IMG/VR virus record: IMGVR_UViG_3300030104_003872
Coordinates: 11,291 to 75,290 of that record
Direction: 5' to 3' (one strand)
Length of the DNA: 64,000 nucleotides
Source of the DNA: a virus
Below, piece after piece: positions 8,198 to 34,744 of this stretch. The position numbers were made by a program, and so were the translations under genes. Numbering within the stretch: the stretch's first letter is position 1; every line of letters begins with the position of its first letter. The notes beneath the pieces were generated by a model, which saw nothing but the letters and a program-made list of their open reading frames with translations, did not search any database and had not been told where the DNA came from.

Positions 8198-8893
8198 TCA
8201 TCTTCTTACCTCTACTGCGTACCAATCAGTACCTCTAGTATATTTGCCACTTAAACCGAAAGTGGAATGAATATCGTAAATCCCATGTGTTATATTCCCT
8301 AATGTGATATTAACATAATCCCATGAAGAACCTTGTGTTTCATATGTAAGATAATCTTGTGAAGTAAAGTTACCTGTTGCATTCTCATACACAGTCCAAT
8401 ATACAGTAAGATTGAATACTTCATCTTCGCAAGATATATCCGCATCCCAACTAATAGTCAAGTTTGTTCCGTTATAATCTAAAATATATGCGTCATACAT
8501 CATAGCCATACAGTCATGCTCTACTGTTTCGTTATCAGTATTATTAGCGGGTGGATTGACAATTACAGTAGTATTATTAGTAGGTTGAATTACATTAGGT
8601 TCATCCGGTTCATCCGAACCATCACGACAATTCTTGTAACCGTCATTTACTAAAGAGGCTTCTATAATCGAACCATCTCCACATTCAAAATCGTCGCCCA
8701 TTTCCCAATCATCGTCAGTAACCCATTCGTCATCACCTTCACCATAAGGTGTAAGGTCAAGAACACCAACTGCTTCTAGACCGGGCATTACTAAGGCAAT
8801 AATAGATGCTAATGTTATGATTAAAGAGCGTATCTCTTGAGCCCTTTCATTAACAGTATCAATAATGGAATCTGCTTCTTCTTGACTCAACAC
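8198..8893 (-). CDS. membrane-anchored surface glycoprotein with an LDL-receptor class A-like repeat
   Basis: N-terminal hydrophobic helix; FECGDGSII...VNDGYKNCRDGSDE; about 11 N-x-T sequons. Confidence 0.7.
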   Translation of the reverse strand: MLSQEEADSIIDTVNERAQEIRSLIITLASIIALVMPGLEAVGVLDLTPYGEGDDEWVTDDDWEMGDDFECGDGSIIEASLVNDGYKNCRDGSDEPDEPNVIQPTNNTTVIVNPPANNTDNETVEHDCMAMMYDAYILDYNGTNLTISWDADISCEDEVFNLTVYWTVYENATGNFTSQDYLTYETQGSSWDYVNITLGNITHGIYDIHSTFGLSGKYTRGTDWYAVEVRR

Positions 8894-8901
8894 AATTCAC
8901 C

Positions 8902-11490
8902 TCACACAACAAGCGACCCAAAAGTTATCACACTCTGAGTACCACTTACGACCAACGGACCCATATCAAGGCTTCCCTTACCTTCTGCTGAAAGCGTCCC
9001 TTGTGGTCCAGTAGGACCGGAAGGTCCGGCCGCTCCAGTCGCACCTGTGGGACCGGTAGGACCAGTTGCTCCTGTTGGTCCTGTGGGACCAGCAACACCT
9101 TGTATTCCTTGCGGACCTGCACTTCCAGTAGGTCCTAAATTACCTGTTGGACCAGAGGGTCCCGTTGGACCAGTAGGTCCAGTTCCTCCGGTTGCCCCAG
9201 TTGCTCCAGTTGCCCCTGCGGGTCCAGTGGCTCCAGAAGGACCAGAAGGTCCGCTAGAACCACTAGGTCCGGTATTACCTGTGGGTCCGCTAGGTCCGGT
9301 TGGACCATTAGCCCCCGTTGGACCGGCGGGTCCCGCAACTGTTGAATCTGCTCCGGCAGGACCGGTAGGACCAGATGGTCCCGAAGGTCCAGTAGGTCCC
9401 GAAGGTCCAGTAGGTCCTGTATTTCCAGTAGGACCAGCAGGTCCTGTTGGACCAGCATCTCCATCATCACCTTTCACTCCTGTTGCACCCGTTGGACCTG
9501 TCGCTCCTGTATTTCCGGCAGGTCCACTAGGACCTGTGGGTCCTGTAGGTCCGGTTGCCCCAGTAGGTCCGGAAGCACCATCTGAACCATCCGCTCCTGC
9601 TGGACCTGTCGCTCCTGTACTTCCTGTGGGACCAGCGGGTCCGGTGGGACCTGTGGGTCCGTCATCACCCTTAGCACCTGTGACTCCTGTTGGACCAGTT
9701 AATCCAGTAGGACCAGCGGGTCCACTAGGTCCGGCAGGTCCAGTTGCACCATCCGACCCATCGTTACCGTCTGCTCCAGCAGGTCCAGTCGCCCCAGTCG
9801 CTCCAGTCGCTCCAGTTGGACCCGCTGCTCCGGCTGGTCCCGAAGGTCCTGAGGGTCCCGCAATACCTTGTAATCCTTGTGCTCCAGTAGCACCTGTGGG
9901 TCCTGTATCTCCTTTATCACCATCTGCTCCAGTCGGACCTGTTGGACCCGTAGCACCTGTCGCACCCGCAGGACCAGTAGGACCAGTAGGTCCAGTCGAA
10001 CCATCTGCTCCGTCATTACCACTAGGTCCCGTTGCCCCTGTGGCTCCGGTCGCACCAGTAACCCCTGTGGGTCCAGCAGGACCAGTAGGTCCAGTAGAGC
10101 CATCTGCTCCAGCGGCTCCTGTTGCTCCTTGAGGACCTGTTGGTCCAACTGCACCTGTTGTTCCGGTACTTCCTGTGGCTCCTGTGGGACCTGCGGGTCC
10201 AGTTGGTCCGTCAGGACCTTCGGGTCCGGTGGGACCAGTTGGTCCTGCACTTCCAGATGGACCTTGTGCTCCCGCCGAACCATCTTGACCGGCTGGTCCT
10301 GTAGGACCGGTGGGTCCAGCAGGTCCTGTTGAGCCAGTTGGACCGCCACTTGTTACTGTCGCCCATTCTAAGCCTGTTGCGGTTGAATTAACACGAAGGA
10401 CTTGATTAGATGTACCTATTGTTGTTACACCTGTTCCACCTTGAAAAATAGGGGTTAGTTCCTGTTCTAAAGGTCCTGTCCCATCAACTGCTCGGTAAAG
10501 ACCATCACTAACCTGTACGAAGTTACCTATACTTCCATTTACTTTAGGTAAAGAGGAAACTTCTATTTCTGCTTTACTATTTCCATAAAGCATACAACCC
10601 GCATCTATTTCTAATTTATGCACGCTTAGGCGGGAATCACCCACCAACTTAGCAAAAAGCCCTACGTTTGCTTTGTAGGTTGCAGGAGTAGGATTATAGA
10701 TATGAAGCCCATACATCTTAGCAACAAACTGCCCCGAACTGCCTCCGTAAGCCCGACCAGAAGAATGATTATTGCTAGTTGGTACTGTTCTAAAACCACT
10801 TGCAGTTCCGGGTAGAGATAATGTAGCATATCCTAAGTTAAGTGTGTTTATAGAAACGGTAAAGGCATTAGCATCAACATTTGTTATTCTAATTTTGACT
10901 TCTCTATCTCTTCTTCCTGAGCCGGATGGGGATATACTAGAGAATGTTGACTGAACATCTAACTTTTCAATATCTATTGTTTCGTTATCTGAATAATATG
11001 GTTGCACATACTGAGGTCTAAATGTTCCTGTATGAAAAATCACAATAGGATGAACTCCCCTATCCATGTGGAATATTCCACCGGAAAACTTAAAAGTAAG
11101 GTTAGAAATATGTGAGCCGTATTCTAAGTTAGCCCCGTTCTTAACATATCTGCCGTCATAGGGGGGTGTTCCGCTAAAAGTTAAGGTTTTTCCGACCGGA
11201 CACTTGACTATACCATCTGCTATAAATCCATTTAATGCAACATTCACATCAAACTTTAAGTACCCTTGAAATCTTCTTTCTGTATTATCTGATGTATCAA
11301 CATCCATTTCTATTTTACTTACGCTCGCAATATCCCAATCACAATTCTCTTCTGAATAATAACCAAAATGTGCGGTATCAGATGCTCCGGGAGCGGCGAG
11401 GGCATTTGCACCTGTTGGAGAACCTGCGTGCCAATTAGATGCCGTAGAGGCATCGGTATCTGTATCTCCTATCCAATATAAATCAGCCAT
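8902..11490 (-). CDS. collagen-like fibre protein with an N-terminal beta-helix-like domain
   Basis: LYWIG...ASNW...P..SDTAHF N-terminus, GGTG...[14 protein letters not shown] linker, then about 450 aa of G-X-Y. Confidence 0.8.
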
Positions 11491-18523: not shown

Positions 18524-18649
18524 GTGCTAGTGTGCGACTACTGTCAAGAAACGTCTATCTCCGCTCCTTATATGACTCATGACATTTACTTAAAGACATT
18601 GGGACTATGCCCCGTATGTGGGAAAAACGGAAGTGTAAGAAATGTCTGA
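18524..18649 (+). CDS. small Zn-ribbon protein (41 aa, not in ORF track)
   Basis: GTG start; CDYC...CPVC; overlaps the terL start. Confidence 0.5.
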   Translation: MLVCDYCQETSISAPYMTHDIYLKTLGLCPVCGKNGSVRNV

Positions 18650-20144
18650 TATACTAAGAGGATTTAATTTAGAGCGTTCAAGAACAGATTTTAAGCATTT
18701 TTATGAATGGGTTGGTTATGTTTGGGGCGACCACATAGGCGAATGGGATAAATTGTATCGTGATAGGCAAGAAGCCAATGTTCACCGTGTTTGTATCATT
18801 GCTCCGCGTGACCACAGTAAGTCAACAACCTTAAGAATGGTAATGTTGCATCAATGCCTATTCAATACATGGCGAGACAAGCCTTTTACTATATGGTTGT
18901 TCTCTGCGTCTAAAGAATTGGCCGCTAACAGGCTCGAAGAAATACGAGGCGATATGATGCGTCATAGAGAACTTAGAAAGTTTATTGATATGCGAAGGGG
19001 TGGAAAACTTAACTTAAGATTCACAAATGGGGCATGGATTAAGGCTACCGGTATAGGTTCTGCTATTCGTGGTGAACATCCGGCTTGTATTGCTATGGAT
19101 GACGTACTCGATGATACAGGAGACATTACCCCCGAATCCACTAGGCATTGGTTTAGAAAAAAGATAACACCGATGCTTTCTCCCGGAACTTGGATGTATT
19201 GTGTCGGCACACCAATGGGAATGACTGATTTATACCACACCGAAATGCTAGAGAACCCTGCTTGGAAAACATGGCTCGGTTCTGCTTTCCCCAATTGGGA
19301 TGAATGGAAGTCTGACCCCGATGGTGTGGATTTAGAATGCCTATGGCCGGAACATCGGTCACTAGACTTCTTGATGGAACAAAAACAGGCTATGGGGGAT
19401 TTAGCATTCGTACAAGAATATCTTTGTAAGGTTGTGGATGAAGATGCTCAAGTTTTTACTAGGTACGATACGCGAGCACACTTAGAATCAACCGATATAA
19501 TGATGACAGGTAAAGAATTAGATGGAAAATACGCCATAGGCTTTGACCCTGCACATGGATTGGGAAGAGACTATTCTGTAATGGTTGTTGTTAGGCAAGA
19601 TAAGGATGGTGACCTTCATGTTGTTGATTTATGGAGACGTAATGATTTTCCCCCTGCGAAGCAGGTCGATGAGATTTTGTCTATGTGTAAAAAATATGAT
19701 AATCCGGCTTTTGCTTGCGAAGATGCGGGATTCCAAAGGCTCTATGAACAATTATTGTTAGAAAGGGGGGCAATGGTGGACTTTAGACCTTCTAAGGTAA
19801 GTAATAAGACACTAAAACAGGCACTATTGAATAGGTTGCGTGTTTGGTTTGAACAACAGAGGATTCACTTTCCATTTGGGGATGATAAAACTAGAAGAAA
19901 CATGAACATCATCTTAGAAGAATTAGACCACCATGTATGGAAGCAAGGCGAGATTATGGACGTTGGGAGACACAACGATACAGTAATGGCTCTTGCACAC
20001 GCAGTTGACCAGTTTTATTCGTGGGATAGGGGAGCACCTGTTGCTACCGGAAAGATTGAATCAAGTGGTTGGCTTCGACCGGATGGTGAATCTAAAGCAC
20101 CAAGATATAGCAGACCGCAGACAGGACGCTACCGCATACTTTAG
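18642..20144 (+). CDS. terL: terminase large subunit
   Basis: APRDHSKST Walker A, IAMDD Walker B, VGTP, QEY, nuclease GFDPA and HNDTVMALA. Confidence 0.95.
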   Translation: MSDILRGFNLERSRTDFKHFYEWVGYVWGDHIGEWDKLYRDRQEANVHRVCIIAPRDHSKSTTLRMVMLHQCLFNTWRDKPFTIWLFSASKELAANRLEEIRGDMMRHRELRKFIDMRRGGKLNLRFTNGAWIKATGIGSAIRGEHPACIAMDDVLDDTGDITPESTRHWFRKKITPMLSPGTWMYCVGTPMGMTDLYHTEMLENPAWKTWLGSAFPNWDEWKSDPDGVDLECLWPEHRSLDFLMEQKQAMGDLAFVQEYLCKVVDEDAQVFTRYDTRAHLESTDIMMTGKELDGKYAIGFDPAHGLGRDYSVMVVVRQDKDGDLHVVDLWRRNDFPPAKQVDEILSMCKKYDNPAFACEDAGFQRLYEQLLLERGAMVDFRPSKVSNKTLKQALLNRLRVWFEQQRIHFPFGDDKTRRNMNIILEELDHHVWKQGEIMDVGRHNDTVMALAHAVDQFYSWDRGAPVATGKIESSGWLRPDGESKAPRYSRPQTGRYRIL

Positions 20145-20263: not shown

Positions 20264-20586
20264 CAAACAATGATGCGTCCATAGAGCATATAGACTTATC
20301 TTTATAATGTCACTCCGAAAAAAATTAGAGAAAACTCTCGTAGGCACTAGGCGGAGATATATGGGCTAAATGCGTGATTTATGGCCTTCTATTATATACT
20401 AAGGCCGTATTTCACCATTTGCTGATATCGGATATTGGTGTTGTCCTTCGGGGCTTCGGACGAAAGCATCTGAACATAACAGGCTAGAATTAGCCTTCCG
20501 AATGCTTTGCCGGACACAAGATGGAAGGCGAATGGAATAAACAAACCAATCGGGCAAATAATCAACATCTGAAAGGTGAAGAAGCA

Positions 20587-21024
20587 ATGGCTAAGGCTAA
20601 GGCTAAGGCACTATATCAGATGGATGCGGAAGAAGCGATTGCTTCGTTCAATAGTACCCGTGCTGACAACAGTAAGGGATTGGGCAAAGCAATAGTGCAT
20701 AAGCCCCGAATGCGTAAGGCATCCGGCAGTCATGTTATGATTGTTGATTTGTCTAAACTGCCTAAGGGAAGCACGGTTGAACACCATCTAGGCTTGGCAA
20801 CAAGTAAGGTGAATGGGAAACCTGCTAAATATGCTTGCGTGTGTCTAACACACAATAGAAGCGTACTATGCACAACACGCCATCAGGCAACCTTCGGGGC
20901 AGTCTTTACTGCCCTTAAGGACGCTAGGACACCGAAGCAACTGATTCAGTCTAAGGGATTTACCCTAACTGATGGAATCGGTTGGTGTGATGGTTGTGTG
21001 AAGGCTTCATTAGCATCTGTCTGA
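20587..21024 (+). CDS. C/H-W family protein, copy 1 (putative pre-early Zn-binding protein)
   Basis: AAAGGTGA RBS then ATG 20587; ACVCLTH...TTRHQA...WCDGC; TATA ATTATATACT at 20391. Confidence 0.75.
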   Translation: MAKAKAKALYQMDAEEAIASFNSTRADNSKGLGKAIVHKPRMRKASGSHVMIVDLSKLPKGSTVEHHLGLATSKVNGKPAKYACVCLTHNRSVLCTTRHQATFGAVFTALKDARTPKQLIQSKGFTLTDGIGWCDGCVKASLASV

Positions 21025-21208
21025 AATGTGTCTTGCCACTATTAGGTGAAGTGGGCTTCCGTAATATGCTAGATATGTATGCGTCAATGAACAGTCAATC
21101 AGACTAACCAAACGATACCCAAGATTAGCACCTGTACAGGATGGATTTCAATGGCTATATCCCGCCGTTAAATCCTGTATAGTTTGAAGCCCCTTCCCAC
21201 ACGAAACC

Positions 21209-21361
21209 ATGATTTTGAAAAGGTATTTTATTGAATGGCGTGATGGAACAATAACCGAAATTAGCATTGATGAATTGAAGCGATTAGATGAATCAGGATT
21301 CCCGAAATCCATGCTTAATTTCATGGAATATCGGGCGTTTAGGAAGTGGTTGAAGGATTAG
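21209..21361 (+). CDS. hypothetical protein (50 aa, not in ORF track)
   Basis: MILKRYFIEWRDGTITEISIDELKRL...WLKD*; ends at the terminator hairpin; all Glu codons are GAA. Confidence 0.45.
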   Translation: MILKRYFIEWRDGTITEISIDELKRLDESGFPKSMLNFMEYRAFRKWLKD

Positions 21362-21410
21362 GCCGAAAGGCCACCTTCTTCCCTTTTTTTTGTGTTTTTT
21401 CAGATTTTTT
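21360..21410 (+). terminator. hairpin plus oligo-T terminator
   Basis: GGCC-GAAA-GGCC followed by three T-tracts (T8, T6, T6). Confidence 0.75.
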
Positions 21411-21448
21411 GAATCTACCGCATAAAAGATGGTTAAAGCCTTCGGTCC

Positions 21449-21545
21449 GCCCCTGTGAGAGAACAAAGGTCCGGAGAAAAAAGGTCAGGAGAAAAAGGTC
21501 TGGAGAAAAAGGTCACGCTGACAAAGGTCAGCCCCTGTGAGAGAA
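21449..21545 (+). repeat. iteron-like array: five AAAGGTC between 15-bp direct repeats
   Basis: AAAGGTC at 21465, 21480, 21494, 21508 and 21523; GCCCCTGTGAGAGAA at 21449 and 21531. Confidence 0.85.
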
Positions 21546-21600
21546 AACACGAGACGCCACCCATGATGACGCCTCGCTTACGTTAGTCCTCTGTCTCGAT

Positions 21601-21789
21601 TCAATTCATCTCAACAAGTGTCTGAATTAAGCATTGCTCCAGTTGTTGCGGGGTCATCTCTGCGTTTATGCCGAGGTCTATTGGTGTTCTCACTAGAGTT
21701 GTTATTACACCTTCCTGACGCCCGTCGTCTCCAACGACTGCGTGTTGCACGATTTTCGCGGTCACTTCTCCTATCTTTATTTTTCTCAT
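21601..21789 (-). CDS. hypothetical early protein
   Basis: AGGAGG RBS; TATA at 21838-47. Confidence 0.6.
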   Translation of the reverse strand: MRKIKIGEVTAKIVQHAVVGDDGRQEGVITTLVRTPIDLGINAEMTPQQLEQCLIQTLVEMN

Positions 21790-22047
21790 TTCATTTCCTC
21801 CTATGGGCTTTCCGCCCTACCTCCTCATGGAAGCCATAGTATATATACTTTGTGTATTTACGACCTCCACCTGAGAACTCTTTCTCGGCTCGGGGTGAGG
21901 CCCCCAAAAAGTAGTGTCGGGGAGAGAGAGGCTCGGGGAGAGGCCCTAAAAGACGCTCTCTCGCCCGGTCCGCCCCCGAGTAGGCGTTTGAGTGCGAGTC
22001 GTGATGCCAGACCGCCCCTCCGAGATGTCGTGGCTGAGTCGTACGTT

Positions 22048-22075
22048 TCTCCGGAGACCGCAATGTTTATAACCC
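22048..22075 (+). promoter_or_regulatory. early promoter: TCTC-CG-GAGA palindrome, 8-nt spacer, TTTATAA
   Basis: Same geometry as ten other early promoters. Confidence 0.7.
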
Positions 22076-22112
22076 CCTACCCCTACAGCGAGGTAGGCCA
22101 AGAGGCCGGGAG

Positions 22113-22460
22113 GTGAAAAATCTGGAAACTGAGAATTACTGGGAGAACTGCGAGAGAAAGACAGGAGCGGCGCTCGGAAAGTTGGGAGTCAAGACCGCCA
22201 AGAGTATTGGCGTAAAAGGAGCATGGACTCTAAAATACCGAGGCAAGGCAAAAATACTCGTTGGTTGCATGAGGAGAGTTGAATCCGAGTGGGCTGACAA
22301 GAGTATTCTGAACGAGAAAAAGGACAGAGTTGCTGAGCACGTTACAGTCTGTGAGCACGGAGTGGCAGTTGGAGCATCCACGAGAAAGGTTGCGATAGAG
22401 CTGGCTAAGAAATCCGAGCACTGGTGCGAGAAGTGTGCCGCGAGAACCGCCGTCCTTTGA
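22113..22460 (+). CDS. C/H-W family protein, copy 2
   Basis: GAWTLK.R.KA...VGC and VCEHG...GASTRKVAIELAK..EHWCEKC; start uncertain (GTG 22113 or CTG 22122). Confidence 0.75.
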   Translation: MKNLETENYWENCERKTGAALGKLGVKTAKSIGVKGAWTLKYRGKAKILVGCMRRVESEWADKSILNEKKDRVAEHVTVCEHGVAVGASTRKVAIELAKKSEHWCEKCAARTAVL

Positions 22461-22970
22461 GACGCGACGTAAATCCAATGACCCCCGAAAGGGGCGAGGA
22501 TGTACTCTCTGGGGTCACGACTCTCTAGTATTGAGGCTCGACCCTATTTGCACAAAGGTCGGGGGGTCACGACTCCGCCCCTTCTCGACCCTAAACGCAC
22601 AAAGGTCAGAAGCCTCCGGGTCCGCCCCAGAGAGAGAAGGCTCGATTCTCACTCATCTTAACCCCTAACCCGAGAACTCGAGCGTTTCTCCGTGTGCGGG
22701 CGGGCGAGCGAGTACTCAAATGTATGACATAAAAGGACCCTGAGCCGACGGGTCACGCCCCACGACTCACTGCTCATCACGACACGCATCTCAGGAGAGG
22801 AGCACGTTTTTTTAGTGGGAGCACAGGTCACCAGAGCCCCCCTACTCTACACGAGCGGACCCTAGAAGGCTTGAGCCCCTCAGGAATCTCGTGGGTGATG
22901 AGCTCCGGCAGGTATTTCTCCCACCAGAGCCTTTACGTCATCTCGAATAACTATCTCGGGGATAGAATAC

Positions 22971-23378
22971 TCAGACGCTCGCATCCTTGATGCTCTGTCT
23001 TGATTTCTCACACCAGATGTGAGCCAGTTTGCATAGCTCGATTGCTTTCTTTCTCGATGATGCTCCCATCACTGACCCATAGTCTGTGACCGCAACATGA
23101 GTTGGTGCAACCATCTCGCCATTTACGAGAATGGTCATGCCTTTGGTCGCTTCGGTAACTTGCTCATCCGCGTTCTCCACGAAAATGCAACCGACCCGAC
23201 ATCCAGCCTTCCTTCTCATCTTCAAAGTCCATGCTCCGGCTCTTCCGATGGTTCTCGCAGTCTTGGCTCCGTCCTTGCCGAGATGTGCTCCAGTTGAAAC
23301 TGTTGCTCCATCCCAATACATGGTCGGGGTTTTCTCTGCTTTACTGCTCTTCTTAGTGCTCTTACTAGTTTTGCTCAT
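22971..23378 (-). CDS. C/H-W family protein, copy 3
   Basis: GAWTLKMRRKAGCRVGC and GASSRKKAIELCK..HIWCEKS; clearly paralogous to 22113. Confidence 0.8.
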   Translation of the reverse strand: MSKTSKSTKKSSKAEKTPTMYWDGATVSTGAHLGKDGAKTARTIGRAGAWTLKMRRKAGCRVGCIFVENADEQVTEATKGMTILVNGEMVAPTHVAVTDYGSVMGASSRKKAIELCKLAHIWCEKSRQSIKDASV

Positions 23379-23480
23379 AAAGTTCTCCTCCTTGTCTCCA
23401 ATACGTGTCTCCGAGTCACGGTAAGGTTCTCATTCAATGTCATTCTCATCGTCCGCCCTACATGACCAGATAGAAGTTAT

Positions 23481-23608
23481 AGGATATAAAGTTTTCGGAC
23501 TCTTGAGTTAGACCGCCCTCACCGTGAGAGTAGTGGAGAAGTCGTAATGTTTTCACTCGAGTTGTCGATGCCTACGTAAAAGAGAACAGGGAGGCAATTC
23601 TCCGCCCC
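23481..23608. promoter_or_regulatory. composite intergenic module 1
   Basis: Minus-strand TATA 23481-90, ACTCTTGAGT 23499, ACTCGAGTTGTCGATG 23555, AAAAG 23578, TCCGCCCC 23601. Confidence 0.8.
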
Positions 23609-23612
23609 TGTC

Positions 23613-24041
23613 TCAATCTCTTCTAGTTTGACCATATAGCCGAGATTCAAATGCTTGCTCGGCTTGTTTCTCTAGTCTCTGTACTTCTGCGTGCTCGTCA
23701 ATTTTCTCTAGTACCTCTGCCACATCTTTCTCGGCCTGTCTCTTATTGTATATCTCCCAAACTTTGTCGGTTACGTTTCTCTTAACCATTTCTCCGAAGT
23801 GTCTCCATTGTCCCTCGTTTATGATATCTCTAGTCTTGTCATCAGTCAATGACCCAAGACCCATGTGTGATAATTTCTCCATTAGAGAATCTATTACGAC
23901 CGGACTGTCATGGAGTTTATCGTACTCTATTGAGTATATTTTGTCTATCTCATTTATTGTGAGTACGTCATCGGTATTTCTCCGGAGGTCTAATCTCCAA
24001 CCTCTGCTGAAATAGGTCCATTTTATCTCAGAGTATGACAC
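23613..24041 (-). CDS. hypothetical early protein
   Basis: Lies between modules 1 and 2; GTG start next to the upstream stop. Confidence 0.6.
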   Translation of the reverse strand: MSYSEIKWTYFSRGWRLDLRRNTDDVLTINEIDKIYSIEYDKLHDSPVVIDSLMEKLSHMGLGSLTDDKTRDIINEGQWRHFGEMVKRNVTDKVWEIYNKRQAEKDVAEVLEKIDEHAEVQRLEKQAEQAFESRLYGQTRRD

Positions 24042-24188
24042 CTATCTCCACCAACAGTCGAAATGTTCAGGCTCAATCGTTTCCTTCTCGGACTTGGTGG
24101 CTCCTTTCTTAACGAGAACCACTCGCCCCTTAAAGAGTTTATTAGCCAACTCTTTTGTTATCTCATATTCATTACTTCTCAATTTCAT
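24042..24188 (-). CDS. hypothetical protein (48 aa, not in ORF track)
   Basis: AAAGGTGA RBS; MKLRSNEYEITKELANK...CWWR*; first gene after the module 2 promoter. Confidence 0.5.
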   Translation of the reverse strand: MKLRSNEYEITKELANKLFKGRVVLVKKGATKSEKETIEPEHFDCWWR

Positions 24189-24242
24189 TTCTCTATTTCA
24201 CCTTTCCTCGGCCTTCCGGCCTACTCTGAGGATGGAAGTCAT

Positions 24243-24346
24243 AGGATATAAACATTTCTGACTCTTGAGTTGTCGCGTGTAGCGTAATAATTTACTCGAG
24301 TTGTCGATGACTACACAAAAGGTCTTGCTCTTGACGACTCCGCCCC
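24243..24346. promoter_or_regulatory. composite intergenic module 2
   Basis: TATA 24243-52, ACTCTTGAGT 24261, ACTCGAGTTGTCGATG 24294, AAAAG 24317, TCCGCCCC 24339. Confidence 0.8.
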
Positions 24347-24382
24347 AACTCTACCGCGTGAGGCAAAGGGGGTATCTCGCAA

Positions 24383-25195
24383 TCACTCGTAATGCGGAGA
24401 ATCCGCGTACTCGTAAAGACCAGTTATAGGTTCGACCTTATAGAAGTGCTCTTTTGCACAGACCCATCCGGTCGGTGTATATCCCTCGGGATAAGTCGAA
24501 CTAACTGTCTCGTCACCGCCTAGAGATTCCCAATCCGGCTCCCATTGTGCTCCATTCGCTCGCCTGTCTTTTATCTCTTGTAACCATTGTATTCTCTTAA
24601 GTTCTCTGAGAACGGCATAGGCTTCTCGGAATGTATTAAGTGGTCCGAGGAAAGCATCGTGGCTCACAATAGAGCGATACCATCCGCCCTCCTCTGGTCC
24701 GCCGTATGCTCTTACTTTCTCGTACCTGCTCACATATATTTGGTCGCCGTGATTCTTCTCCCAATAACCTTCCTCGGGGAAGAAATCGTACTCACCTTCT
24801 TTGAGCAGATATAGTTTCTCCATACCTGAGCCAGCGTAATGCCATCTCTGATAGTCCCACTGCTCTTTGCGGTACTCGTAAAGTGTAACGAGCCAGTCGC
24901 CGTTGATACTCTGATATTTATCTCCTATTCGCTCAGGAAGACCATTTTCGTCTTGTTCTCTGCAATATTGCTCAAACGCCTGTTGCTCAGTCTGATGTCG
25001 AATTCTCTTCTGCTTGTGCTCACGCCTTGACTCGCTATGCTTTAGGTCATAGACCCAAGCACGAGTGGATAGCAATGTTCTCGCTAAACCGGTCAGTTCT
25101 GCATTCTCTTCAAAACTTCTCTTTTCGTCGTATAATTCTTTCTCTTTCTCGTAATCTGTCATATTTTTCTCACCTCCCTTATGGTCTGACTCCAT
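24383..25195 (-). CDS. hypothetical early protein (YGGPEEGGW motif)
   Basis: Long ORF; GGAGGTGA precedes an internal Met (about 25162), which is the likely true start. Confidence 0.65.
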   Translation of the reverse strand: MESDHKGGEKNMTDYEKEKELYDEKRSFEENAELTGLARTLLSTRAWVYDLKHSESRREHKQKRIRHQTEQQAFEQYCREQDENGLPERIGDKYQSINGDWLVTLYEYRKEQWDYQRWHYAGSGMEKLYLLKEGEYDFFPEEGYWEKNHGDQIYVSRYEKVRAYGGPEEGGWYRSIVSHDAFLGPLNTFREAYAVLRELKRIQWLQEIKDRRANGAQWEPDWESLGGDETVSSTYPEGYTPTGWVCAKEHFYKVEPITGLYEYADSPHYE

Positions 25196-25213
25196 TTCAT
25201 TGTATTCTCTTGA

Positions 25214-25570
25214 TTATAACTCATTAACTGCATCTCTTAATTCGACTTCATTGGCTATTCGAGTTGCTTCTCGATGTGCCTTTAATCTCCGGATGTAACT
25301 CCTATCTTCTTTCTCTAATGTATCGAACTCTTCACCTGCGAATCTCGCATAGTTGGTCAATAATGCGTGGAGATTAATACGATGCACTCCGCAACTATAT
25401 CTCATTAGTTTTAACGAGTGCCTATCTCCCTTCATGGGAGATGATTGCATCTCTAATAGTTCGACCTGTAAGTCAAACTCTTTCATTTTCTCTAGTAACT
25501 CTTTCTGTAACTCAACTGCTCTAATCATAGAGTTTATGAGTTCCATTTCTTCATCCTCCGTTTCCGCCAT
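25214..25570 (-). CDS. hypothetical helical protein (leaderless)
   Basis: ATG about 20 nt downstream of the module 3 TATA. Confidence 0.65.
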   Translation of the reverse strand: MAETEDEEMELINSMIRAVELQKELLEKMKEFDLQVELLEMQSSPMKGDRHSLKLMRYSCGVHRINLHALLTNYARFAGEEFDTLEKEDRSYIRRLKAHREATRIANEVELRDAVNEL

Positions 25571-25589
25571 GTAGAGGTATAGGGGTTCT

Positions 25590-25693
25590 AGGTATTAAAC
25601 CTTTCTAACTCCTGAGTATCCTCAGAGAATGATAGATTTACTCGAGTTGTCGATGGGTTGGTAAAAGAGAATAGGATTGTGAATCTCCGCCCC
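25590..25693. promoter_or_regulatory. composite intergenic module 3
   Basis: TATA 25590-99, ACTCCTGAGT 25608, ACTCGAGTTGTCGATG 25640, AAAAG 25663, TCCGCCCC 25686. Confidence 0.8.
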
Positions 25694-25699
25694 ACACGA

Positions 25700-26176
25700 C
25701 TAGTAATTAAAATCGGTCAGGGGAAAGTCATTCTCTTCGACTATCCTTTCGTTGTTCTCAAAGAACTTCCTCACATGCTCAAGACCTATCAGATGGGCTC
25801 TACCGGACTTACTTCTATTGTCGATAACTGATGGGTCATCTGCAAACTGCTCGTTCAGTATGCTCAGATATAATCTCTTAGCCACATCATACTCTTGAGG
25901 TTTCCATAATAAGACCTCTTCTGTCTCGACATATCTTTGCTCAGTTCTAAATCGAGTGTTGATTCGCTCTAATTGCTCATCATCCATGATTTCTCTGCTT
26001 CTGAGCAGAATAAAACCATGCTCATGATGACCTAGTTCCTCGTCATAACTCTTATTCACAGACCATATTAAATCTCTTAATTCAGATTTCTCTTCACCAG
26101 TTCTGCTCATCCATGAACGAGCAAGTGATTGTGGTGTCGTGTGTCGCCACTCTGTACGTGACCTGACCAAAATCAT
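25700..26176 (-). CDS. hypothetical early protein
   Basis: ORF in the minus-strand operon; true start may lie further upstream, near GGAGGTGA at about 26225. Confidence 0.55.
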   Translation of the reverse strand: MILVRSRTEWRHTTPQSLARSWMSRTGEEKSELRDLIWSVNKSYDEELGHHEHGFILLRSREIMDDEQLERINTRFRTEQRYVETEEVLLWKPQEYDVAKRLYLSILNEQFADDPSVIDNRSKSGRAHLIGLEHVRKFFENNERIVEENDFPLTDFNY

Positions 26177-26256
26177 CCTGTCCTCTGATATTTTATACTC
26201 GTATTCGTCTATCTCTATTCACCTCCTTTAGACTCCAAATCTCCCATCTATGAATC

Positions 26257-26595
26257 TCATTGCAGAGAACTTTCCTTCTCTTGCTTTTGCATCTCGTACA
26301 TCATCTTTCTCCCTTCTATACGAGCCTTCCACATAGAGATACCAAAACTCATTGCTTGTTGTCTCTTTTCCATATCCTCATCAAACGGGTCCATACCCAT
26401 TCTCGCGGGTAAGACCATAGTGGCGTCGCATAAGTCGCAACATCTCGAATCGAAATCTTTTGGGTCAGCAAGGAGTGGGTAGGGATTATTACCCATGTAT
26501 TCTCCGGTCTTGAATAATAACTCGTTGGTATGAGGGTGTCTTGGTCCCTTAATCTCTTTCTTACAGAGACAACACTTAAGATTACTCTTCCTCAT
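26257..26595 (-). CDS. Zn-finger protein
   Basis: CCLC...GNNPYP...RCCDLCD..V.PAR. Confidence 0.65.
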   Translation of the reverse strand: MRKSNLKCCLCKKEIKGPRHPHTNELLFKTGEYMGNNPYPLLADPKDFDSRCCDLCDATMVLPARMGMDPFDEDMEKRQQAMSFGISMWKARIEGRKMMYEMQKQEKESSLQ

Positions 26596-26779
26596 CGTTG
26601 ATTGCTCCTTCTAATAGTCGTCGAATGACACTAGGGTCAATAGCAGACTCTTTGATAAGAGCCATAAACTCTTCGGCCGTTTGACCTGTTGCTACCGTTT
26701 CGCCTGTCTCTTTGCTTACAACTCTGAATAAAGGAGCATCCGCACCCGCATTCTCTGTCTCTACATCAATTACGGTCAT
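26582..26779 (-). CDS. hypothetical protein
   Basis: AGGAGTG RBS; coupled to the next gene. Confidence 0.55.
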   Translation of the reverse strand: MTVIDVETENAGADAPLFRVVSKETGETVATGQTAEEFMALIKESAIDPSVIRRLLEGAINDEEE

Positions 26780-26939
26780 ACTTATGCACTCCTAGCCTCA
26801 TACTGTTTTTTGGTCAGTCCATACCTTCTCAGGTAATATTTGTCGTTCATCTCTTCAATCATATTTCTCATCTTGTTGCTCATCTTCTATTCGCTCCTGT
26901 TTCATGTGGGCTCGCCACGCTAATATCTCTATATGTATT

Positions 26940-27104
26940 TTACTCATCTACTTTCCTCCTTATCCTTAAATACTCATGGCAGGGCTCGCAAAGAGTTGCA
27001 CTCTCACCTGCCCGACCTGAATGGAAATCAGTCGGCATATTACCGACAACCCACCATGACTCGGCATGGAATAAGTCGTCACCACATTGGTCGCAATAGG
27101 TCAT
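26940..27104 (-). CDS. small Zn-ribbon protein (not in ORF track)
   Basis: MTYCDQC...LCEPCHE; ATGA overlap with a small leaderless ORF at 27101-27232. Confidence 0.45.
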   Translation of the reverse strand: MTYCDQCGDDLFHAESWWVVGNMPTDFHSGRAGESATLCEPCHEYLRIRRKVDE

Positions 27105-27251
27105 TCTAAATCATACTCCTCATATACCCACTCTGGGGTTTCTAGTCGAAACTTGAATCTGGTCACCAAGAGTTTATTCCGTAGTCGGGAATACTTAACT
27201 CGGGTGATGTTTCCATCGTCGCCGTCCGCCATATCTACCAATTATCGTCTT

Positions 27252-27376
27252 AGGATATAAAGGTTTTGGACTCTTGAGTTATGGTGTATTTTAACTCGAG
27301 TTGTAGGTTATAGTAGTAAAAGGTTCGGTAGAGCACTACTCCGCCCCAACTCAAGAGTTGGAAAGGTTTATATTCT
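27252..27376. promoter_or_regulatory. composite intergenic module 4 (divergent promoters)
   Basis: Minus TATA 27252-61 with ACTCTTGAGT 27270; ACTCGAGTTGT 27294; AAAAG 27318; TCCGCCCC 27340; ACTCAAGAGT 27349 with plus TATA 27367. Confidence 0.8.
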
Positions 27377-27425
27377 AGTTAGATGATTCCCTCATGTAGC
27401 GGAAGCACAGGAGACATCAGATAAA

Positions 27426-28127
27426 ATGAGTGAAAATGAAAACAGAGTAATTGAACAAGAGACAGAGCGTGAAGCAGGTAAGAGTATAACCCTGACCTTC
27501 ACACCTATCGGAGCAATCATAGATTCCGAGAAAGAAAGCAAAGTACAAGAGCAAGATGAAAATGCAGACCTGTTCTTTATGAGAAGTATCAACACGACCT
27601 TCGGGTTCAAGATGTTGAGAAACTCATGGGATAGTGAGCACGACATCAAAGCAGGAGCAACTGAGACTAATACCAAGAGTACAAATGGACTAAGAATCGG
27701 AGATACAACCGTGACGAGTTTCATAACATCAGAGTTGGAGTGGTTCAAAGAGGCACTAATGCCTCTGCTTATCGACCAAAGTGATGTGGAGATAATCCAG
27801 ACCACTAAGGAAGAGATAGTAATAGTTGAGCCACTAGGCAGATACGAGCACTTCGGTTGGGACGAGACACCAGAGTGGGCTGATGAAAGAGTAACCCTCG
27901 AATACATCGACCTTCGTAATGGTAAGGCCTCTATTCTCGTACAAGGCGAGACAGGTTCTGACCTTCAAGGGGATGAGGTGAACGAGGCAGTTAAGGGCTA
28001 CCACGATATGCTTATGAGTACCATCAGAAGTATGACCTGCACAGACGAGAATGAATATAGCAGAGATTGTAAGAGTTTGCTTAAAGTGGAGTCTCATAGA
28101 GTTTGCGACACATCCTTCTTGAATTGA
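27426..28127 (+). CDS. hypothetical acidic protein
   Basis: Follows the module 4 plus-strand promoter; AGGAG RBS. Confidence 0.7.
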   Translation: MSENENRVIEQETEREAGKSITLTFTPIGAIIDSEKESKVQEQDENADLFFMRSINTTFGFKMLRNSWDSEHDIKAGATETNTKSTNGLRIGDTTVTSFITSELEWFKEALMPLLIDQSDVEIIQTTKEEIVIVEPLGRYEHFGWDETPEWADERVTLEYIDLRNGKASILVQGETGSDLQGDEVNEAVKGYHDMLMSTIRSMTCTDENEYSRDCKSLLKVESHRVCDTSFLN

Positions 28128-28245
28128 GTTCTTTGGGGGAGAGAACTTCGTAAGCCTCGGCGTGGGTAAATCTCACGCTGAGGTGAAACATCTTATGCTC
28201 TCAGTAGGAGGAACGATAGGATGACAGACCTGAAACTTCGAGGGG

Positions 28246-29445
28246 GTGATGAGAATGTCAGATGAAAGAGGATTAATACCTTACTCTAACAAAGAAGAGA
28301 TGATTCTCGCTATGCAAGATTTGTCGGATGAAATGCTTAAGGTAGGTCACGATAATGTGGAAGAGTTCCTAGCACTCGTAAAACAAGAGATGTGGGATAG
28401 AGAACACGCTATGGTGGTCACATACAATGAAGAGTTCAAAGAAAAGTGGGCTCATGTATTCGACTTATTTAACGAAGGTTGGTCTATATTAAGAGAACTA
28501 TACCAAATATGCGAGGACTATGATGGAGATAATAATTTTATCACAGAGAAGAATGAGCATCCGAATTATCCTCATTGCGAGTTAGAAAAGGCTTGGGTCG
28601 TAAGATACGAGTCATTTTTAGCAAGAGCAAAAGATATGCCTAGTCGTGGTTATACACATGAGGGACCATATGGAACTCTAGTATTCAGAGAAGAATATCT
28701 AAAAGAGTTGGATTTAGAGTCTTATTGGGCGACTACATATTCAACGGAGATAGCAAGGAGATTGGAGCCTAAAGAGAAGGACTTAAAGTATGGTCTTACT
28801 TTTGCTCATTATCCTACAGACCCTTTCAAAGAGGAAGAGGAATACATCGAAGATTGGAGCAGATACAAATATGTTAGAGATACTAAGATAGAGGCCTTTG
28901 ATAAAGTCGTATATTTCTTGAGAAATGTTATGGTTAAGTCGGAGACAAAGGATATAAGACCTTCACAAAACGACGATTGGAAAACCAATGAGCTCAAACA
29001 CTATAATCTCGAAACACATCAGTTAGAGAGACCTTTAGAGTGGAAGATAATAGAGGATGAGCAGATAGTGGGTGCTATTTACGGTAGAGGTAGGAGCGAT
29101 AATAAATATGCGACTTGTTTCGACTGTGATGAAAATGGTCGAAATAGATTAGCCGTGAGAACATATTACGAGCGTGGGTATCAAGAGATGCCAGGAGCTC
29201 CTGTTCATGCTACATGCGAGTACTTTACTTGTATGAGATGTGGAAGTGAGCGTAAAGGTGGAGAACATGGAGATTTCCCTGTTGGTGGAGTTGACTTAAT
29301 AGGTCAGCCACTCTTTGCAGGTATGAGCACAGAAGAAGTATGTCGTCAATGCTCATGTTATACTACCAAACAGTACGGTGGTAGCGGAGAACGAGGAAGC
29401 GATAGGGAGTGTTGGGCTTGCTATGGAGAACCCGGTCATTACTAG
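28246..29445 (+). CDS. hypothetical protein with C-terminal CxxC pairs
   Basis: CFDC, CMRC, CRQC and CWAC; GGGGGTGA RBS. Confidence 0.7.
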   Translation: MMRMSDERGLIPYSNKEEMILAMQDLSDEMLKVGHDNVEEFLALVKQEMWDREHAMVVTYNEEFKEKWAHVFDLFNEGWSILRELYQICEDYDGDNNFITEKNEHPNYPHCELEKAWVVRYESFLARAKDMPSRGYTHEGPYGTLVFREEYLKELDLESYWATTYSTEIARRLEPKEKDLKYGLTFAHYPTDPFKEEEEYIEDWSRYKYVRDTKIEAFDKVVYFLRNVMVKSETKDIRPSQNDDWKTNELKHYNLETHQLERPLEWKIIEDEQIVGAIYGRGRSDNKYATCFDCDENGRNRLAVRTYYERGYQEMPGAPVHATCEYFTCMRCGSERKGGEHGDFPVGGVDLIGQPLFAGMSTEEVCRQCSCYTTKQYGGSGERGSDRECWACYGEPGHY

Positions 29446-29519
29446 ACAGGTCTGGTGGTAGAGATACCGCCATTCCTCTCACTCTAAGATAAAAGAAAAG
29501 AGCGCTCCTCTCTCCGCCC

Positions 29520-29820
29520 CTTGAGAGAAGAAGGTGGTGGGTCTAGATTGCAGTATGCCTACCCAGCAATGTCTCCCCGACCCACCGAAAGGAGTATTAG
29601 GTGGAGGCTTATCCGACTTGTTACCGCCTGTTTTAGACTCACTTCCTCGTTGCATTTCTGCCTCTTTCGAGATAAGGGTAGTGTGCGGCTCGGTTACGGT
29701 TTGGTCTACCACCTGTTTATGTAGACTCGCCCCCTTTTTGTATGCTCCGTCATGTACCCGTTCTCATGGTGGACGGAGCCACACCATGTGGTCGTTTCGT
29801 GCGGAAGAACGCTCGAATTG
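29520..29820. ncRNA. candidate multi-hairpin structured RNA or long 3' UTR
   Basis: Stems GGTGGGTC/GACCCACC, GTCTAC/GTAGAC and GCTCCGTC/GACGGAGC, CTC-GAAA-GAG (minus); U-tract at the minus-strand 3' end. Confidence 0.4.
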
Positions 29821-29821
29821 T

Positions 29822-30301
29822 CTAAGCAGTCGCTTTAACTTCTGTCTCTGTGACTTCTGTCTCAGCCTCTGCCGTTGCTTTAGCCTCTTCCTCGGCTTTC
29901 GCCTTAGCCTCGGCTAATTTCTCCACTATCTTTTGAGCCTTGTTGCTCCATGTGGCCGGATGTCTCGCTAGTTCGAGTGCCTTTTTCCTTGAAGTTGCTC
30001 CGTGCTTCTGGAGAATCTTCATTTTTAGGTCTTTTGCTCCCTTTTCGTGAGTTCCTGTGATAACGACTGTATGCTTGTCTGGTCTGTTACAGATAGGCTC
30101 GTCAGATGCCTCGGTTAAGTAAATTCTCACTTGCATACCTCCAATCTCCTGACAACCCTTCTCACGCCACAATCCTCTGATGCCGTAAAGGTCAACATTA
30201 GAGTGTCCGTGTGTTTCTGTATCTCCCTTAGACCACTTTGGGATAGGTTTCTCATCTTCTGTGGTCTTTGATTCTGATTTAGTCTCTTTCTTTGTGCTCA
30301 T
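29822..30301 (-). CDS. C/H-W family protein, copy 4 (Cys-degenerate)
   Basis: HTVVI...HGATSRKKALELARHPATWSNKA; GGAGGTGA RBS. Confidence 0.7.
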   Translation of the reverse strand: MSTKKETKSESKTTEDEKPIPKWSKGDTETHGHSNVDLYGIRGLWREKGCQEIGGMQVRIYLTEASDEPICNRPDKHTVVITGTHEKGAKDLKMKILQKHGATSRKKALELARHPATWSNKAQKIVEKLAEAKAKAEEEAKATAEAETEVTETEVKATA

Positions 30302-30365: not shown

Positions 30366-30533
30366 AGTATATATAATGTTCTAACTCTTGAGTTGTGCTT
30401 GAGTTGTAGCCTACTGCCTTACTACTAGAGTAGATACTACGCGTGTAGTGAGTGAGTGCTCTTATTATTGGTAAAAGATTCGGTAGAGGTATTCTCCCGC
30501 CCGTAACTCGTGAGATGGAAACATTTATGTGCC
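30366..30533. promoter_or_regulatory. composite intergenic module 5 (divergent promoters)
   Basis: Minus TATA 30366-75 with ACTCTTGAGT 30384; AAAAG 30473 and TCCCGCCC 30495; ACTCGTGAGA 30506 with TTTATGT 30524. Confidence 0.75.
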
Positions 30534-33464: not shown

Positions 33465-33492
33465 ACTCAAGAGTCAGCAATGTTTATATCCT
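33465..33492 (+). promoter_or_regulatory. early promoter (TGACTCAAGAGTCA palindrome, TTTATATCCT)
   Basis: Palindrome core 33465-74, 8-nt spacer; drives leaderless ardC. Confidence 0.8.
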
Positions 33493-33511: not shown

Positions 33512-34744
33512 ATGGCGAAAGACGGAGGCTTCGGAAGAAGCATGAGCAAGGAAAAGCGTAAAGAGTTTGAGCGTCAACTTGCTGATGAGTTCATTGAGAA
33601 AATAAAAAGTGGCGATGTCGGTGCTTGGAGTTCAGGTTGGACCAACTTAGGAGGCAATACTATGCCTCATAATACAAAAGGTCGCCCATATAGAGGTATA
33701 AACACAATAATTCTCTGGCTTAGAGGTTCAGATTATAACTCTAATACATGGGGTACTTATCACTCTTGGAAAGAGGTTGCGAGGAAACACGCAATAAAAG
33801 AGGGTAAGTTTGAGTTAAAAATCGGTAGAGATGGAAAACCATACAAGCATACGACTGAGTGGTATGGAGTAAAGCAAGGAGAAAGCGGTACAAGCATTAT
33901 TCTCTGGAAACCACTCACATACAAGAACGAGAAAACCAATAAAAAGACAGGTGAGATAGAAGAGTCTATCGGTATGACCATGTTAATGCGAGTATTTACA
34001 GTATTCAATCGTGACCAGACAGGATTACCTGAGATTATTACAGAAACAGAGTTAGAAGAAGCAGAAGAGTTCAACAGTAGAGAAAAACAATTAGAAAACT
34101 GCCTCAATTGGTACATTGAGAACCCAAATCGTAAGGTGGTCAAGACTGGTGAGATGCTAGTACATCCTCATCCGAAGGCAGGTGAGAAACATACAGGTGA
34201 AGACCCTATATGGGTCGTAAAAGATGGTGATATTATTCTCAAACACGGCGGAGATAGAGCGTTCTATACATCTAGCAGAGATAGGATAGCACTTCCTCTT
34301 CGTGAGCAATTCAAAGAAAATGCGAGATACCTATCTACTAAAGGGCATGAGATTATCCATAGTACAGGTCACCCACTTCGACTTAATCGTGCTCTTGGTA
34401 ATAGATTCGGGAGCGAAGATTATGCTAAGGAGGAATTGATTGCCGAGTTCGGTACTGCCTTTCTCATAGGCTCATTCGGCATACAGGGAGAACTTCGTAA
34501 TGTTGAGTATATCAATAATTGGGCTTCGGTCTTGAGTAAAGAACCTAGATTCCTCATTACTGCGGCTCAAAGAGCACAAAAAGCAGTTAATTATGTACTC
34601 GAACCTTGGGTAGAACACGAGGCATGGCGTGACCAAGAAATAAATGACTTAAGAGAATATCTTGAGGGCAAAGAAATACAAATTACTCCTATGGGTCTTA
34701 ACAGATTACACGGAGATTTATCAGTTATGGAGGAAGAAGAATGA
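33512..34744 (+). CDS. ardC: ArdC-like ssDNA-binding antirestriction protein with a zincin-like domain
   Basis: PYRGIN...W.TY..W, V..GE.GT, FTVFN.DQ; AFY....D.I.LP, HEIIHSTGH, YAKEELIAE, YINNW. Confidence 0.9.
   Translation: MAKDGGFGRSMSKEKRKEFERQLADEFIEKIKSGDVGAWSSGWTNLGGNTMPHNTKGRPYRGINTIILWLRGSDYNSNTWGTYHSWKEVARKHAIKEGKFELKIGRDGKPYKHTTEWYGVKQGESGTSIILWKPLTYKNEKTNKKTGEIEESIGMTMLMRVFTVFNRDQTGLPEIITETELEEAEEFNSREKQLENCLNWYIENPNRKVVKTGEMLVHPHPKAGEKHTGEDPIWVVKDGDIILKHGGDRAFYTSSRDRIALPLREQFKENARYLSTKGHEIIHSTGHPLRLNRALGNRFGSEDYAKEELIAEFGTAFLIGSFGIQGELRNVEYINNWASVLSKEPRFLITAAQRAQKAVNYVLEPWVEHEAWRDQEINDLREYLEGKEIQITPMGLNRLHGDLSVMEEEE

Follow-up and report, generated by a model that had tools for sequence, protein, structure and literature searches.

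We examined four small open reading frames (ORFs), here named c1 to c4, in a stretch of the IMG/VR virus record IMGVR_UViG_3300030104_003872. The stretch, called the window in what follows, is 64,000 nt long and comprises bases 11291-75290 of the 75,290-bp record, which is rated complete by CheckV. Three of the four ORFs, c2, c3 and c4, belong to one family of small basic proteins, and a domain of this family appears, judging by protein sequences, to have been inserted in frame into the ribosomal protein uS3 of several Thalassarchaeaceae. In the window, genes for a portal-like protein and a large terminase (18642-20144) precede a block of small genes, after which comes a replication module comprising an SF2 helicase, an ArdC-like/zincin protein, an RFC-like AAA+ clamp loader, a DNA methylase, and a family-B DNA polymerase (PolB). 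The same gene set is found in the magroviruses of Marine Group II archaea, in which most genes that are neither structural nor replicative have no assigned function (PMC5434244). By this gene set, including PolB and the clamp loader, the virus is magrovirus-like, and its hosts are likely Marine Group II archaea. Magroviruses are among the most abundant archaeal viruses of the surface ocean, and both the viruses and their hosts are uncultured. A megablast of the region against 50,697 deposited phage records showed no DNA-level likeness, tblastn of c1 and c2 against the same records gave no matches, and the closest terminase relatives among them are only 24-26% identical. Scans of the window for tRNAs and Rfam families gave nothing.

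A family of small basic proteins in three lineages

The original prediction had taken the four ORFs for paralogues of one diversified family of small, basic, unclassified proteins, some of them of zinc type by motif. All four ORFs are present, and all four products are basic, with isoelectric points (pI) of 8.4-9.9 (9.5-9.9 for the cores). By BLASTP, c2 and c3 matched at E 3e-24 with 45% identity, c3 and c4 at E 1e-7 with 26% identity across 129 residues, and c2 and c4 at E 6e-4 with a common Gly-Ala-[Ser/Thr]-[Ser/Thr]-Arg-Lys...Trp segment. The likeness of the three spans the whole core of ~100 residues. A hidden Markov model (HMM) of c2-c4 run against the entire 75,290-bp record at E<=10 identified exactly c2, c3, and c4. 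BLASTP and the HMM thus bear out the paralogy, and with it the diversified and partly zinc-type family, for these three, while homology of c1 is possible but has unstable profile support.

The core motifs, all present in c2, are Gly-[Ala/Leu/Cys]-Trp-x-x-Lys, a Val-Gly-Cys strand, His-x-x-x-Cys-x-His-Gly, [Ser/Thr]-Arg-[Lys/Arg]-x-Ala, and Trp-Cys-x-x-Cys; the parts of these motifs that are not ligands are retained in c3 and c4. Invariant or near-invariant positions of the family are G36, W38, K41, V50, H76, R91, A94, and W104. When the four proteins and 22 family members were scanned with Pfam, PHROG, and NCBIfam, no usable match emerged, and the c2-c4 family is undescribed, with no known family model. 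Small basic zinc-type viral proteins without known function are in themselves a precedented kind. The family has few members: HMMER run in full over 1.84 billion representatives found 13 clusters (best E 1.5e-33), a word-indexed search found three family matches, and a pattern scan of IMG/VR found three related viral contigs. A scan of 185,579 species genomes with a pattern from the family alignment gave no confirmed matches.

In an unrooted maximum-likelihood tree (27 rows, 114 columns), c2, c3, and c4 were observed as three separate lineages. Each lineage has orthologues in other viruses or metagenomes, and the duplications must therefore be old. The c3 orthologues include P0001 (92%) and P0003 (61%), and those of c4 are P0007, P0018, and a third copy in the L005 record. 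The number of family copies per relative ranges from one, in a 94%-complete genome of 62.7 kb, to three, in a 25-kb fragment. Between c2 and its 70%-identical orthologue in L004, the ratio of nonsynonymous to synonymous substitution rates (dN/dS) was 0.09. For the remaining pairs dS is saturated, with proteins still 50-58% identical.

Table 1. Coordinates of the four ORFs, their promoter-like boxes, and the GAG/CTC-free stretches around c1 and its homologues
Feature	Sequence	Coordinates	Strand	Description
c1	window	20587-21024	+	145-aa basic protein, pI 9.9; invariant C86, H89, C134, C137
c2	window	22113-22460	+	115 aa; complete Cys-x-His...Cys-x-x-Cys set; family reference member
c3	window	22971-23378	-	135-aa paralogue; Lys/Ser/Thr-rich N-terminal tail; three of four ligands lost
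c4	window	29822-30301	-	159-aa paralogue; basic core; Lys-rich N-terminal tail; acidic Ala/Glu/Lys C-terminal tail; all four ligands lost
c2 promoter-like box	window	22049-22072	+	CTCCGGAG, 8 nt, TTTATAA
c3 promoter-like box	window	23484-23507	-	CTCAAGAG, 8 nt, TTTATAT
c4 promoter-like box	window	30369-30392	-	CTCAAGAG then TTATATAT
GAG/CTC-free stretch	window	20354-21457		1,103 bp; encloses c1 and flanks
Gap around c1 homologue	L004	8479-9580		
Gap around c1 homologue	L005	6357-7359		
Gap around c1 homologue	L006	7624-8839		
Gap around c1 homologue	L065	3743-4538		reaches locus end
Gap around c1 homologue	L067	3680-5100		
Gap around c1 homologue	L068	3678-5141		

Each of the four genes had been thought to have its own promoter and hairpin-rich flanks. 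A CTC-NN-GAG palindrome placed 6-11 nt upstream of a TATA-like word occurs at 12 sites in the window against 1.0 expected, and all of these sites lie within 22-36 kb except one at 8821-8841. Such a box with a TATA-like word precedes c2, c3, and c4, for which a promoter of their own therefore holds; c1 lacks it and has only a TATA-like word with a Shine-Dalgarno-like AGGTGA, both read by eye. The hairpin-rich flanks were not confirmed, as the folding z-scores of -1.66, -0.58, and -1.62 against dinucleotide shuffles are within chance. The 510-nt spacer between the convergent c2 and c3 (22461-22970) holds blocks conserved in four viruses (alignment A11: window, L004, L005, L006), namely GCACAAAGGTCAG...CCGCCCCAGAGAGAG, TAAAAGGACCC, and GAGCCCCTCA. 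This spacer folds no better than its shuffles, and no RNA contig was found over it.

The same zone holds other repeated words. CCGCCCC is present in 10 copies, all on the + strand and all in 21447-29520, where 2.4 would be expected in the whole window. Several copies lie in longer repeated blocks upstream of palindrome and TATA boxes (repeat families D2, D7, D8, and D12). At 21465-21531 there are four head-to-tail copies of AAAGGTC-N-GGAGAAAA with a period of 14-15 nt, bracketed by two copies of GGTC(C/A)GCCCCTGTGAGAGAA at 21444 and 21526. A site motif, AAAAG-N16-18-TCCGCCCC, is a candidate DNA target beside the CTC-NN-GAG box.

To assess presence in RNA libraries, two metatranscriptome runs of a single marine sample were used, and contig matches of >=99% were counted. 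Contigs were found on c2 (22148-22366), on c3 (23221-23442, the 5' part with 64 nt of leader), and on c4 (29687-29850 and 29868-30296), and others match the ORFs 27426-28127 and 25033-25214. In that sample's DNA run there were only scattered low-depth pieces. These observations are consistent with transcription of c2, c3, and c4. No RNA-library contig covers c1 or the GC-rich intergenic stretches, which is not evidence of silence. For the ORF 27426-28127 (233 aa, acidic, without a family), a 724-nt contig of run X2 (27401-28133) covers the full length and X3 contigs cover parts; divergent palindrome and TATA boxes at 27255-27278 (-) and 27350-27373 (+) flank this ORF.

Putative zinc ligands and the predicted fold

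Three elements stand out in the family alignments: the near-invariant Cys of the Val-Gly-Cys strand, the Cys-x-His pair, and the Trp-Cys-x-x-Cys pair. The alignments agree with the earlier reading that the putative zinc ligands are complete in c1 and c2 and eroded in c3 and c4. The ligand set of c2 is C80, H82, C105, and C108. The single ligand left in c3 is the first Cys of the last pair, and c4 and its orthologues have none of the four. P0006, a member of the c3 lineage, keeps the full set, so the zinc site has been lost at least twice. Because it is missing from the c4 lineage and from part of the c3 lineage, the site would be structural and dispensable.

An AlphaFold2 model of c2, built with a 20-sequence alignment, was confident, with a predicted local distance difference test (pLDDT) score of 91.8 and a predicted template modelling (pTM) score of 0.82. 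The model has a helix at 22-32, strands at 37-43, 48-54, 76-80, and 85-88, and helices at 91-98 and 106-114. The turn that joins strands 3 and 4 holds C80 and H82, and the onset of the last helix holds C105 and C108, which we take to be a treble-clef arrangement. We infer from the model that c2 carries a treble-clef-like zinc site. As in treble-clef zinc fingers, the model has two putative ligands at the turn of a beta-hairpin and two where the next helix begins; unlike them, c2 has a helix and four-strand sheet without a match in the PDB, and some members of its family are free of ligands.

Structure and profile searches gave no counterpart for this fold. The best Foldseek match of c2 in the PDB had E 0.8, and a second look at the Foldseek matches with VIA reached a Z of at most 2.6. 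VIA-align of c2 against 48,161 chains gave a best Z of 4.0, to MMOD 6d7k_H (root-mean-square deviation 3.7, 63 aligned), where the typical best Z of the tool is 7-8. A sequence-profile search of the PDB had no matches at E<=10, and the ESM Atlas scores for c2 and c1 were at most 0.83, which is chance level. BFVD contained two unnamed viral proteins with template modelling (TM) scores of 0.42-0.50, the best being A0A6M9Z4B2 (E 0.07, TM 0.50, 76 columns). As modelled, the c2 fold is without a PDB counterpart.

Folds of the double-stranded RNA-binding domain (dsRBD) type offer one comparison. The dsRBD motif is Gly-x-Gly-x-Ser-Lys-Lys-x-Ala. Like the dsRBD itself and the N-terminal domain of uS5, the c2 domain has a helix-strands-helix order, and its Gly-x-Ser-[Ser/Thr]-Arg-Lys-x-Ala, where the helix after the sheet begins, resembles the dsRBD motif. 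It differs from them in having four strands and a zinc site. Pfam dsrm gave no match at E<=10 to the 22 members, and no dsRBD was present in the Foldseek or VIA lists, with which a relation would still be compatible.

The domain in archaeal uS3 and the possible role of c2-c4

Among the 1.84 billion representatives, the only credible multi-domain match was P0010, a protein of 367 aa with a KH_2 domain, a Ribosomal_S3_C domain, and then a c2-type domain at residues 253-359. A match to P0013, which has four CAP domains, was judged spurious. Further fusions to uS3 were found in other assemblies: P0019 (Tara, K02982), P0020 (379 aa, 70% identical overall), P0030, and P0031. They represent several Thalassarchaeaceae sequences with the domain in frame within the acidic C-terminal tail, and the alignment places the insert a few residues ahead of the tail end, with the terminal EEE retained. 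The uS3 part of P0010 is 98% identical to the 258-aa uS3 without insert of a Marine Group II (Thalassarchaeum-type) genome, where the gene lies in an L22-S3-L29-SUI1 operon. As read from these protein sequences, the in-frame insertion of the domain into uS3 is a new observation. The four viral proteins gave no Pfam match, and so have neither KH_2 nor Ribosomal_S3_C; since these domains occur only in the cellular fusions, the viral proteins are not uS3 and have only the extra tail domain in common with them.

All four ligands are kept in the four uS3 inserts. In the tree the inserts group together (84/79) within a clade (97/96) shared with the viral c2 and c3 types, which implies a single acquisition, with its direction left open by the unrooted tree. 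Outside uS3, 5 of the 401 sampled Poseidoniales genomes have a stand-alone copy of the domain, and the stand-alone copies adjoin genes for PEPCK, PDH E1, an aldo-keto reductase, formate dehydrogenase, and a pseudouridine synthase. A C-terminal Glu-Glu-Glu was also observed on 6 of 85 ORFs of the window, with ends at 26582 (-), 34744, 35778, 37663, 42895, and 54958. The same end is found on host uS3 (L007 3001-3777), on the uS3 fusions, and on the stand-alone relative P0014, and it could represent a C-terminal tag that recurs.

By the Rosetta-stone principle, a fusion of two proteins in one genome is a sign that their separate counterparts tend to interact. The in-frame fusion to uS3 thus suggests the ribosome or RNA as a target of the domain, and by this logic the free viral proteins would act at or near uS3. 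We tentatively propose that c2-c4 are nucleic-acid-binding proteins that work at uS3 or close to it, where mRNA enters the 30S subunit, a reading that we regard as possible rather than probable. The three would be anciently diverged paralogues of a compact domain of ~100 residues (a helix, four strands, and two helices) whose zinc site is treble-clef-like, whose basic surface is conserved, and whose charged tails are flexible. The basic surface (K41, R43, R91, K/R92) would bind nucleic acid, and the proteins would attach to the small ribosomal subunit of the host, or beside it, in the vicinity of uS3 on the mRNA entry side, or bind mRNA there. Supplied from their own co-regulated promoters, they could bias translation or RNA handling towards viral messages, and the three paralogues probably would differ in target or timing. 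An early timing of c2-c4 is suggested solely by the type of promoter. In a more specific and, in our view, unlikely version, c2/c3-type proteins are free-standing factors that plug into the archaeal 30S at the uS3/mRNA-entry side, and some Thalassarchaeaceae hard-wired the domain, with its previously unseen fold, into the uS3 tail as a domestication or a counter-measure. If true, this would make it the first protein family of an archaeal virus to be described as targeting the ribosome.

Several observations weigh against a role at uS3. The fusion is rare: it was not seen at 47 genome loci or at 64 metagenome loci whose uS3 reaches 99% identity, nor in any of the 401 sampled Poseidoniales genomes, and because of this rarity the insert could simply be tolerated in a disordered tail. 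Scans of genome and metagenome contigs with P0010 returned only uS3 without the insert, and the fusions are known here as protein sequences. No translation-related neighbourhood is conserved around the stand-alone cellular copies. Neither in sequence nor in structure was there any likeness to a known RNA-, DNA-, or ribosome-binding domain (Pfam, PHROG, NCBIfam, PDB, Foldseek, VIA), and the binding of metal, nucleic acid, and ribosome is in each case predicted only. The RNA support comes from contigs of one sample, in which DNA carry-over is possible. The original prediction had named other roles, as readers of the CTC-NN-GAG operator or of modified GAG, anti-defence proteins, or partners of adjacent RNAs. 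No finding connects the proteins with any of these, and the uS3 fusion, the one piece of contextual evidence, points elsewhere, though it does not exclude them.

The rival readings, which are not all mutually exclusive, keep parts of these roles. One holds that c2-c4, and perhaps c1, bind DNA, either as regulators reading the CTC-NN-GAG box or the one-stranded CCGCCCC-type sites, or as a chromatin-like coat of the viral DNA. These are small basic proteins with a zinc motif, their genes lie in a 21.4-30.5 kb zone that is rich in palindrome and TATA sites and has all 10 CCGCCCC words, and the boxes of c2-c4 themselves would be in keeping with autoregulation. The searches detected no known DNA-binding fold, be it helix-turn-helix, ribbon-helix-helix, or another, however, and while the palindromic box suggests a dimeric reader, there is no sign of a dimer in c2-c4. 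Other small zinc-ribbon or AbrB-like ORFs nearby are equally good candidates, and binding to DNA leaves both the insertion in uS3 and the stand-alone copies beside metabolic genes unexplained. On balance we consider this reading doubtful.

The proteins could instead be host-takeover or anti-defence effectors that work by protein contact, for example with acidic tails such as the EEE of uS3, in which case their divergent copies would reflect an arms race. The copy number of one to three among relatives, the deep divergence, and the repeated loss of zinc ligands point this way, as do the position of c1 in a site-free island beside the terminase, which recalls leader genes of the T7 gene 0.3 type, the basic domains that adjoin acidic tails in the uS3 fusions, and the EEE C-termini on viral ORFs. 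Set against this, no homology to anti-defence proteins is known (neither PADLOC nor anti-defence libraries were scanned), the best structural likeness to an anti-CRISPR protein (Z 2.1-2.2) is at noise level, and strong purifying selection together with orthologues in distant viruses fits a conserved housekeeping role better. We regard an effector role as quite unlikely. The presence of the same domain within host uS3 is a rare natural experiment, which gives a testable entry to the way in which these viruses deal with host translation and to ribosome heterogeneity in Marine Group II archaea. The family itself is conserved, multi-copy, and present in RNA libraries, with a confidently modelled fold that has no PDB match.

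Two known systems resemble the proposed role in part. PhiKZ014 is a ribosome-binding protein of a bacterial phage that is made at once on infection and binds the large subunit, as shown experimentally (PMC10914614). Like it, c2-c4 are small viral proteins of a host-takeover region that are proposed here to dock on the host ribosome; unlike it, they have an archaeal host and no relation to it in sequence or fold, and their link to the ribosome is the uS3 gene fusion alone. Bona fide ribosomal proteins, e.g. bS21 and bL12, have also been captured by viruses (PMC6375957). There too a module is common to viral genomes and the host ribosome, whereas the module described here is no known ribosomal protein and forms an extra domain of uS3 in few host lineages.

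c1 and its GAG/CTC-free island

The claim that one copy lies inside a GAG/CTC desert was found to hold: c1 is enclosed by the stretch listed in Table 1 and has no GAG/CTC site, against 28 in c2, 24 in c3, and 27 in c4. Homologues of c1 with the same N-terminus are P0005 and proteins of six related viral contigs, and the four ligands are invariant in c1 and these seven relatives. In each of the six contigs the c1 homologue lies in a GAG/CTC-free gap of 0.8-1.46 kb and has no site of its own, while the c2-like neighbour genes have 17-27. The conserved GAG/CTC-free island is a new observation. Because the gap is kept in six contigs though the c1 proteins are only 30-50% identical, the island is under selection, and it connects c1 with the DNA biology centred on GAG/CTC that this virus is suspected to have. 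In all related contigs the c1 family directly follows the terminase gene. Since c1 is kept in a site-free island beside that gene, its role is probably separate from that of c2-c4.

T7 gene 0.3, a first-injected leader gene free of restriction sites that encodes the acidic DNA mimic Ocr, and the T5 pre-early genes offer a comparison for c1. The island of c1 resembles them as a stretch without a short DNA word near a likely genome end (the terminase gene), as would fit an unprotected segment that enters first. The likeness is confined to c1, which is basic where Ocr is acidic and has no homology to these genes. A search for a small terminase subunit found no Pfam or PHROG match for c1 and a low-confidence model, with the place next to the terminase gene conserved.

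The odds that c1 is a remote relative of c2-c4 are about even. If it is not, which we put a little short of an even chance, c1 would be an unrelated small zinc protein with a convergent Cys/His...Trp-Cys-x-x-Cys layout and its own role by the terminase, in packaging-site recognition or as a pre-early protein. BLASTP of c1 against c2 and against c3 was not significant, and the c2-c4 HMM misses c1 in the genome at E<=10. Comparison of the two families with hhalign gave probabilities of 78.9% (E 1.6e-5), 61.6% (E 7.8e-5), 60.5%, 15%, 5.1%, 2.1%, or 1.1% depending on the alignments used, with the broader alignments falling to 1-5%. Only the last three core motifs of the c2-c4 family occur in c1, where they are altered. 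Its spacing of C-x2-H differs from the C-x-H of the family, and a segment of ~25 extra residues precedes the Trp-Cys. The different promoter type, the freedom from GAG/CTC sites, and the conserved synteny with the terminase gene likewise argue for a separate origin.

Other comparisons favour homology. Two hhalign scores, 36.6 and 21.6, exceeded 150 of 150 and 149 of 150 A4 column shuffles, and the score of 21.6 exceeded all 150 shuffles of its own A10 null (column-shuffle null scores had a mean of 11.3, a standard deviation of 2.4, and a maximum of 23.6). Shuffling destroys any CxxC, so this control cannot tell homology from a convergent zinc motif. All eight members of the c1 family were collinear to the same part of the c2-4 HMM (per-sequence p 1e-4 to 3e-2). 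The predicted order of secondary structure agrees between c1 and c2 at every aligned element, with a poor model for c1 (pLDDT 52). Finally, a C-terminus of Ala-[Ser/Ala/Thr/Val]-[Val/Leu/Ala] is common to all four copies and was found in 2 of 81 other ORFs.

Three further genes of the window were observed in passing. Just downstream of the GAG/CTC-free island, between c1 and c2, a 62-aa ORF without a family match (21601-21789, -) could encode another small regulator. In the structural module, a protein of 861 aa (8902-11490, -) has collagen triple-helix repeats (Pfam Collagen, E 4.5e-64) and is probably a fibre. The ORF 33512-34744 (+), with a palindrome and TATA box upstream at 33466-33489, combines an ArdC N-terminal domain with an MPTase-PolyVal zincin domain; anti-restriction proteins of conjugative elements are known to have this pairing, which here is encoded by an archaeal virus.

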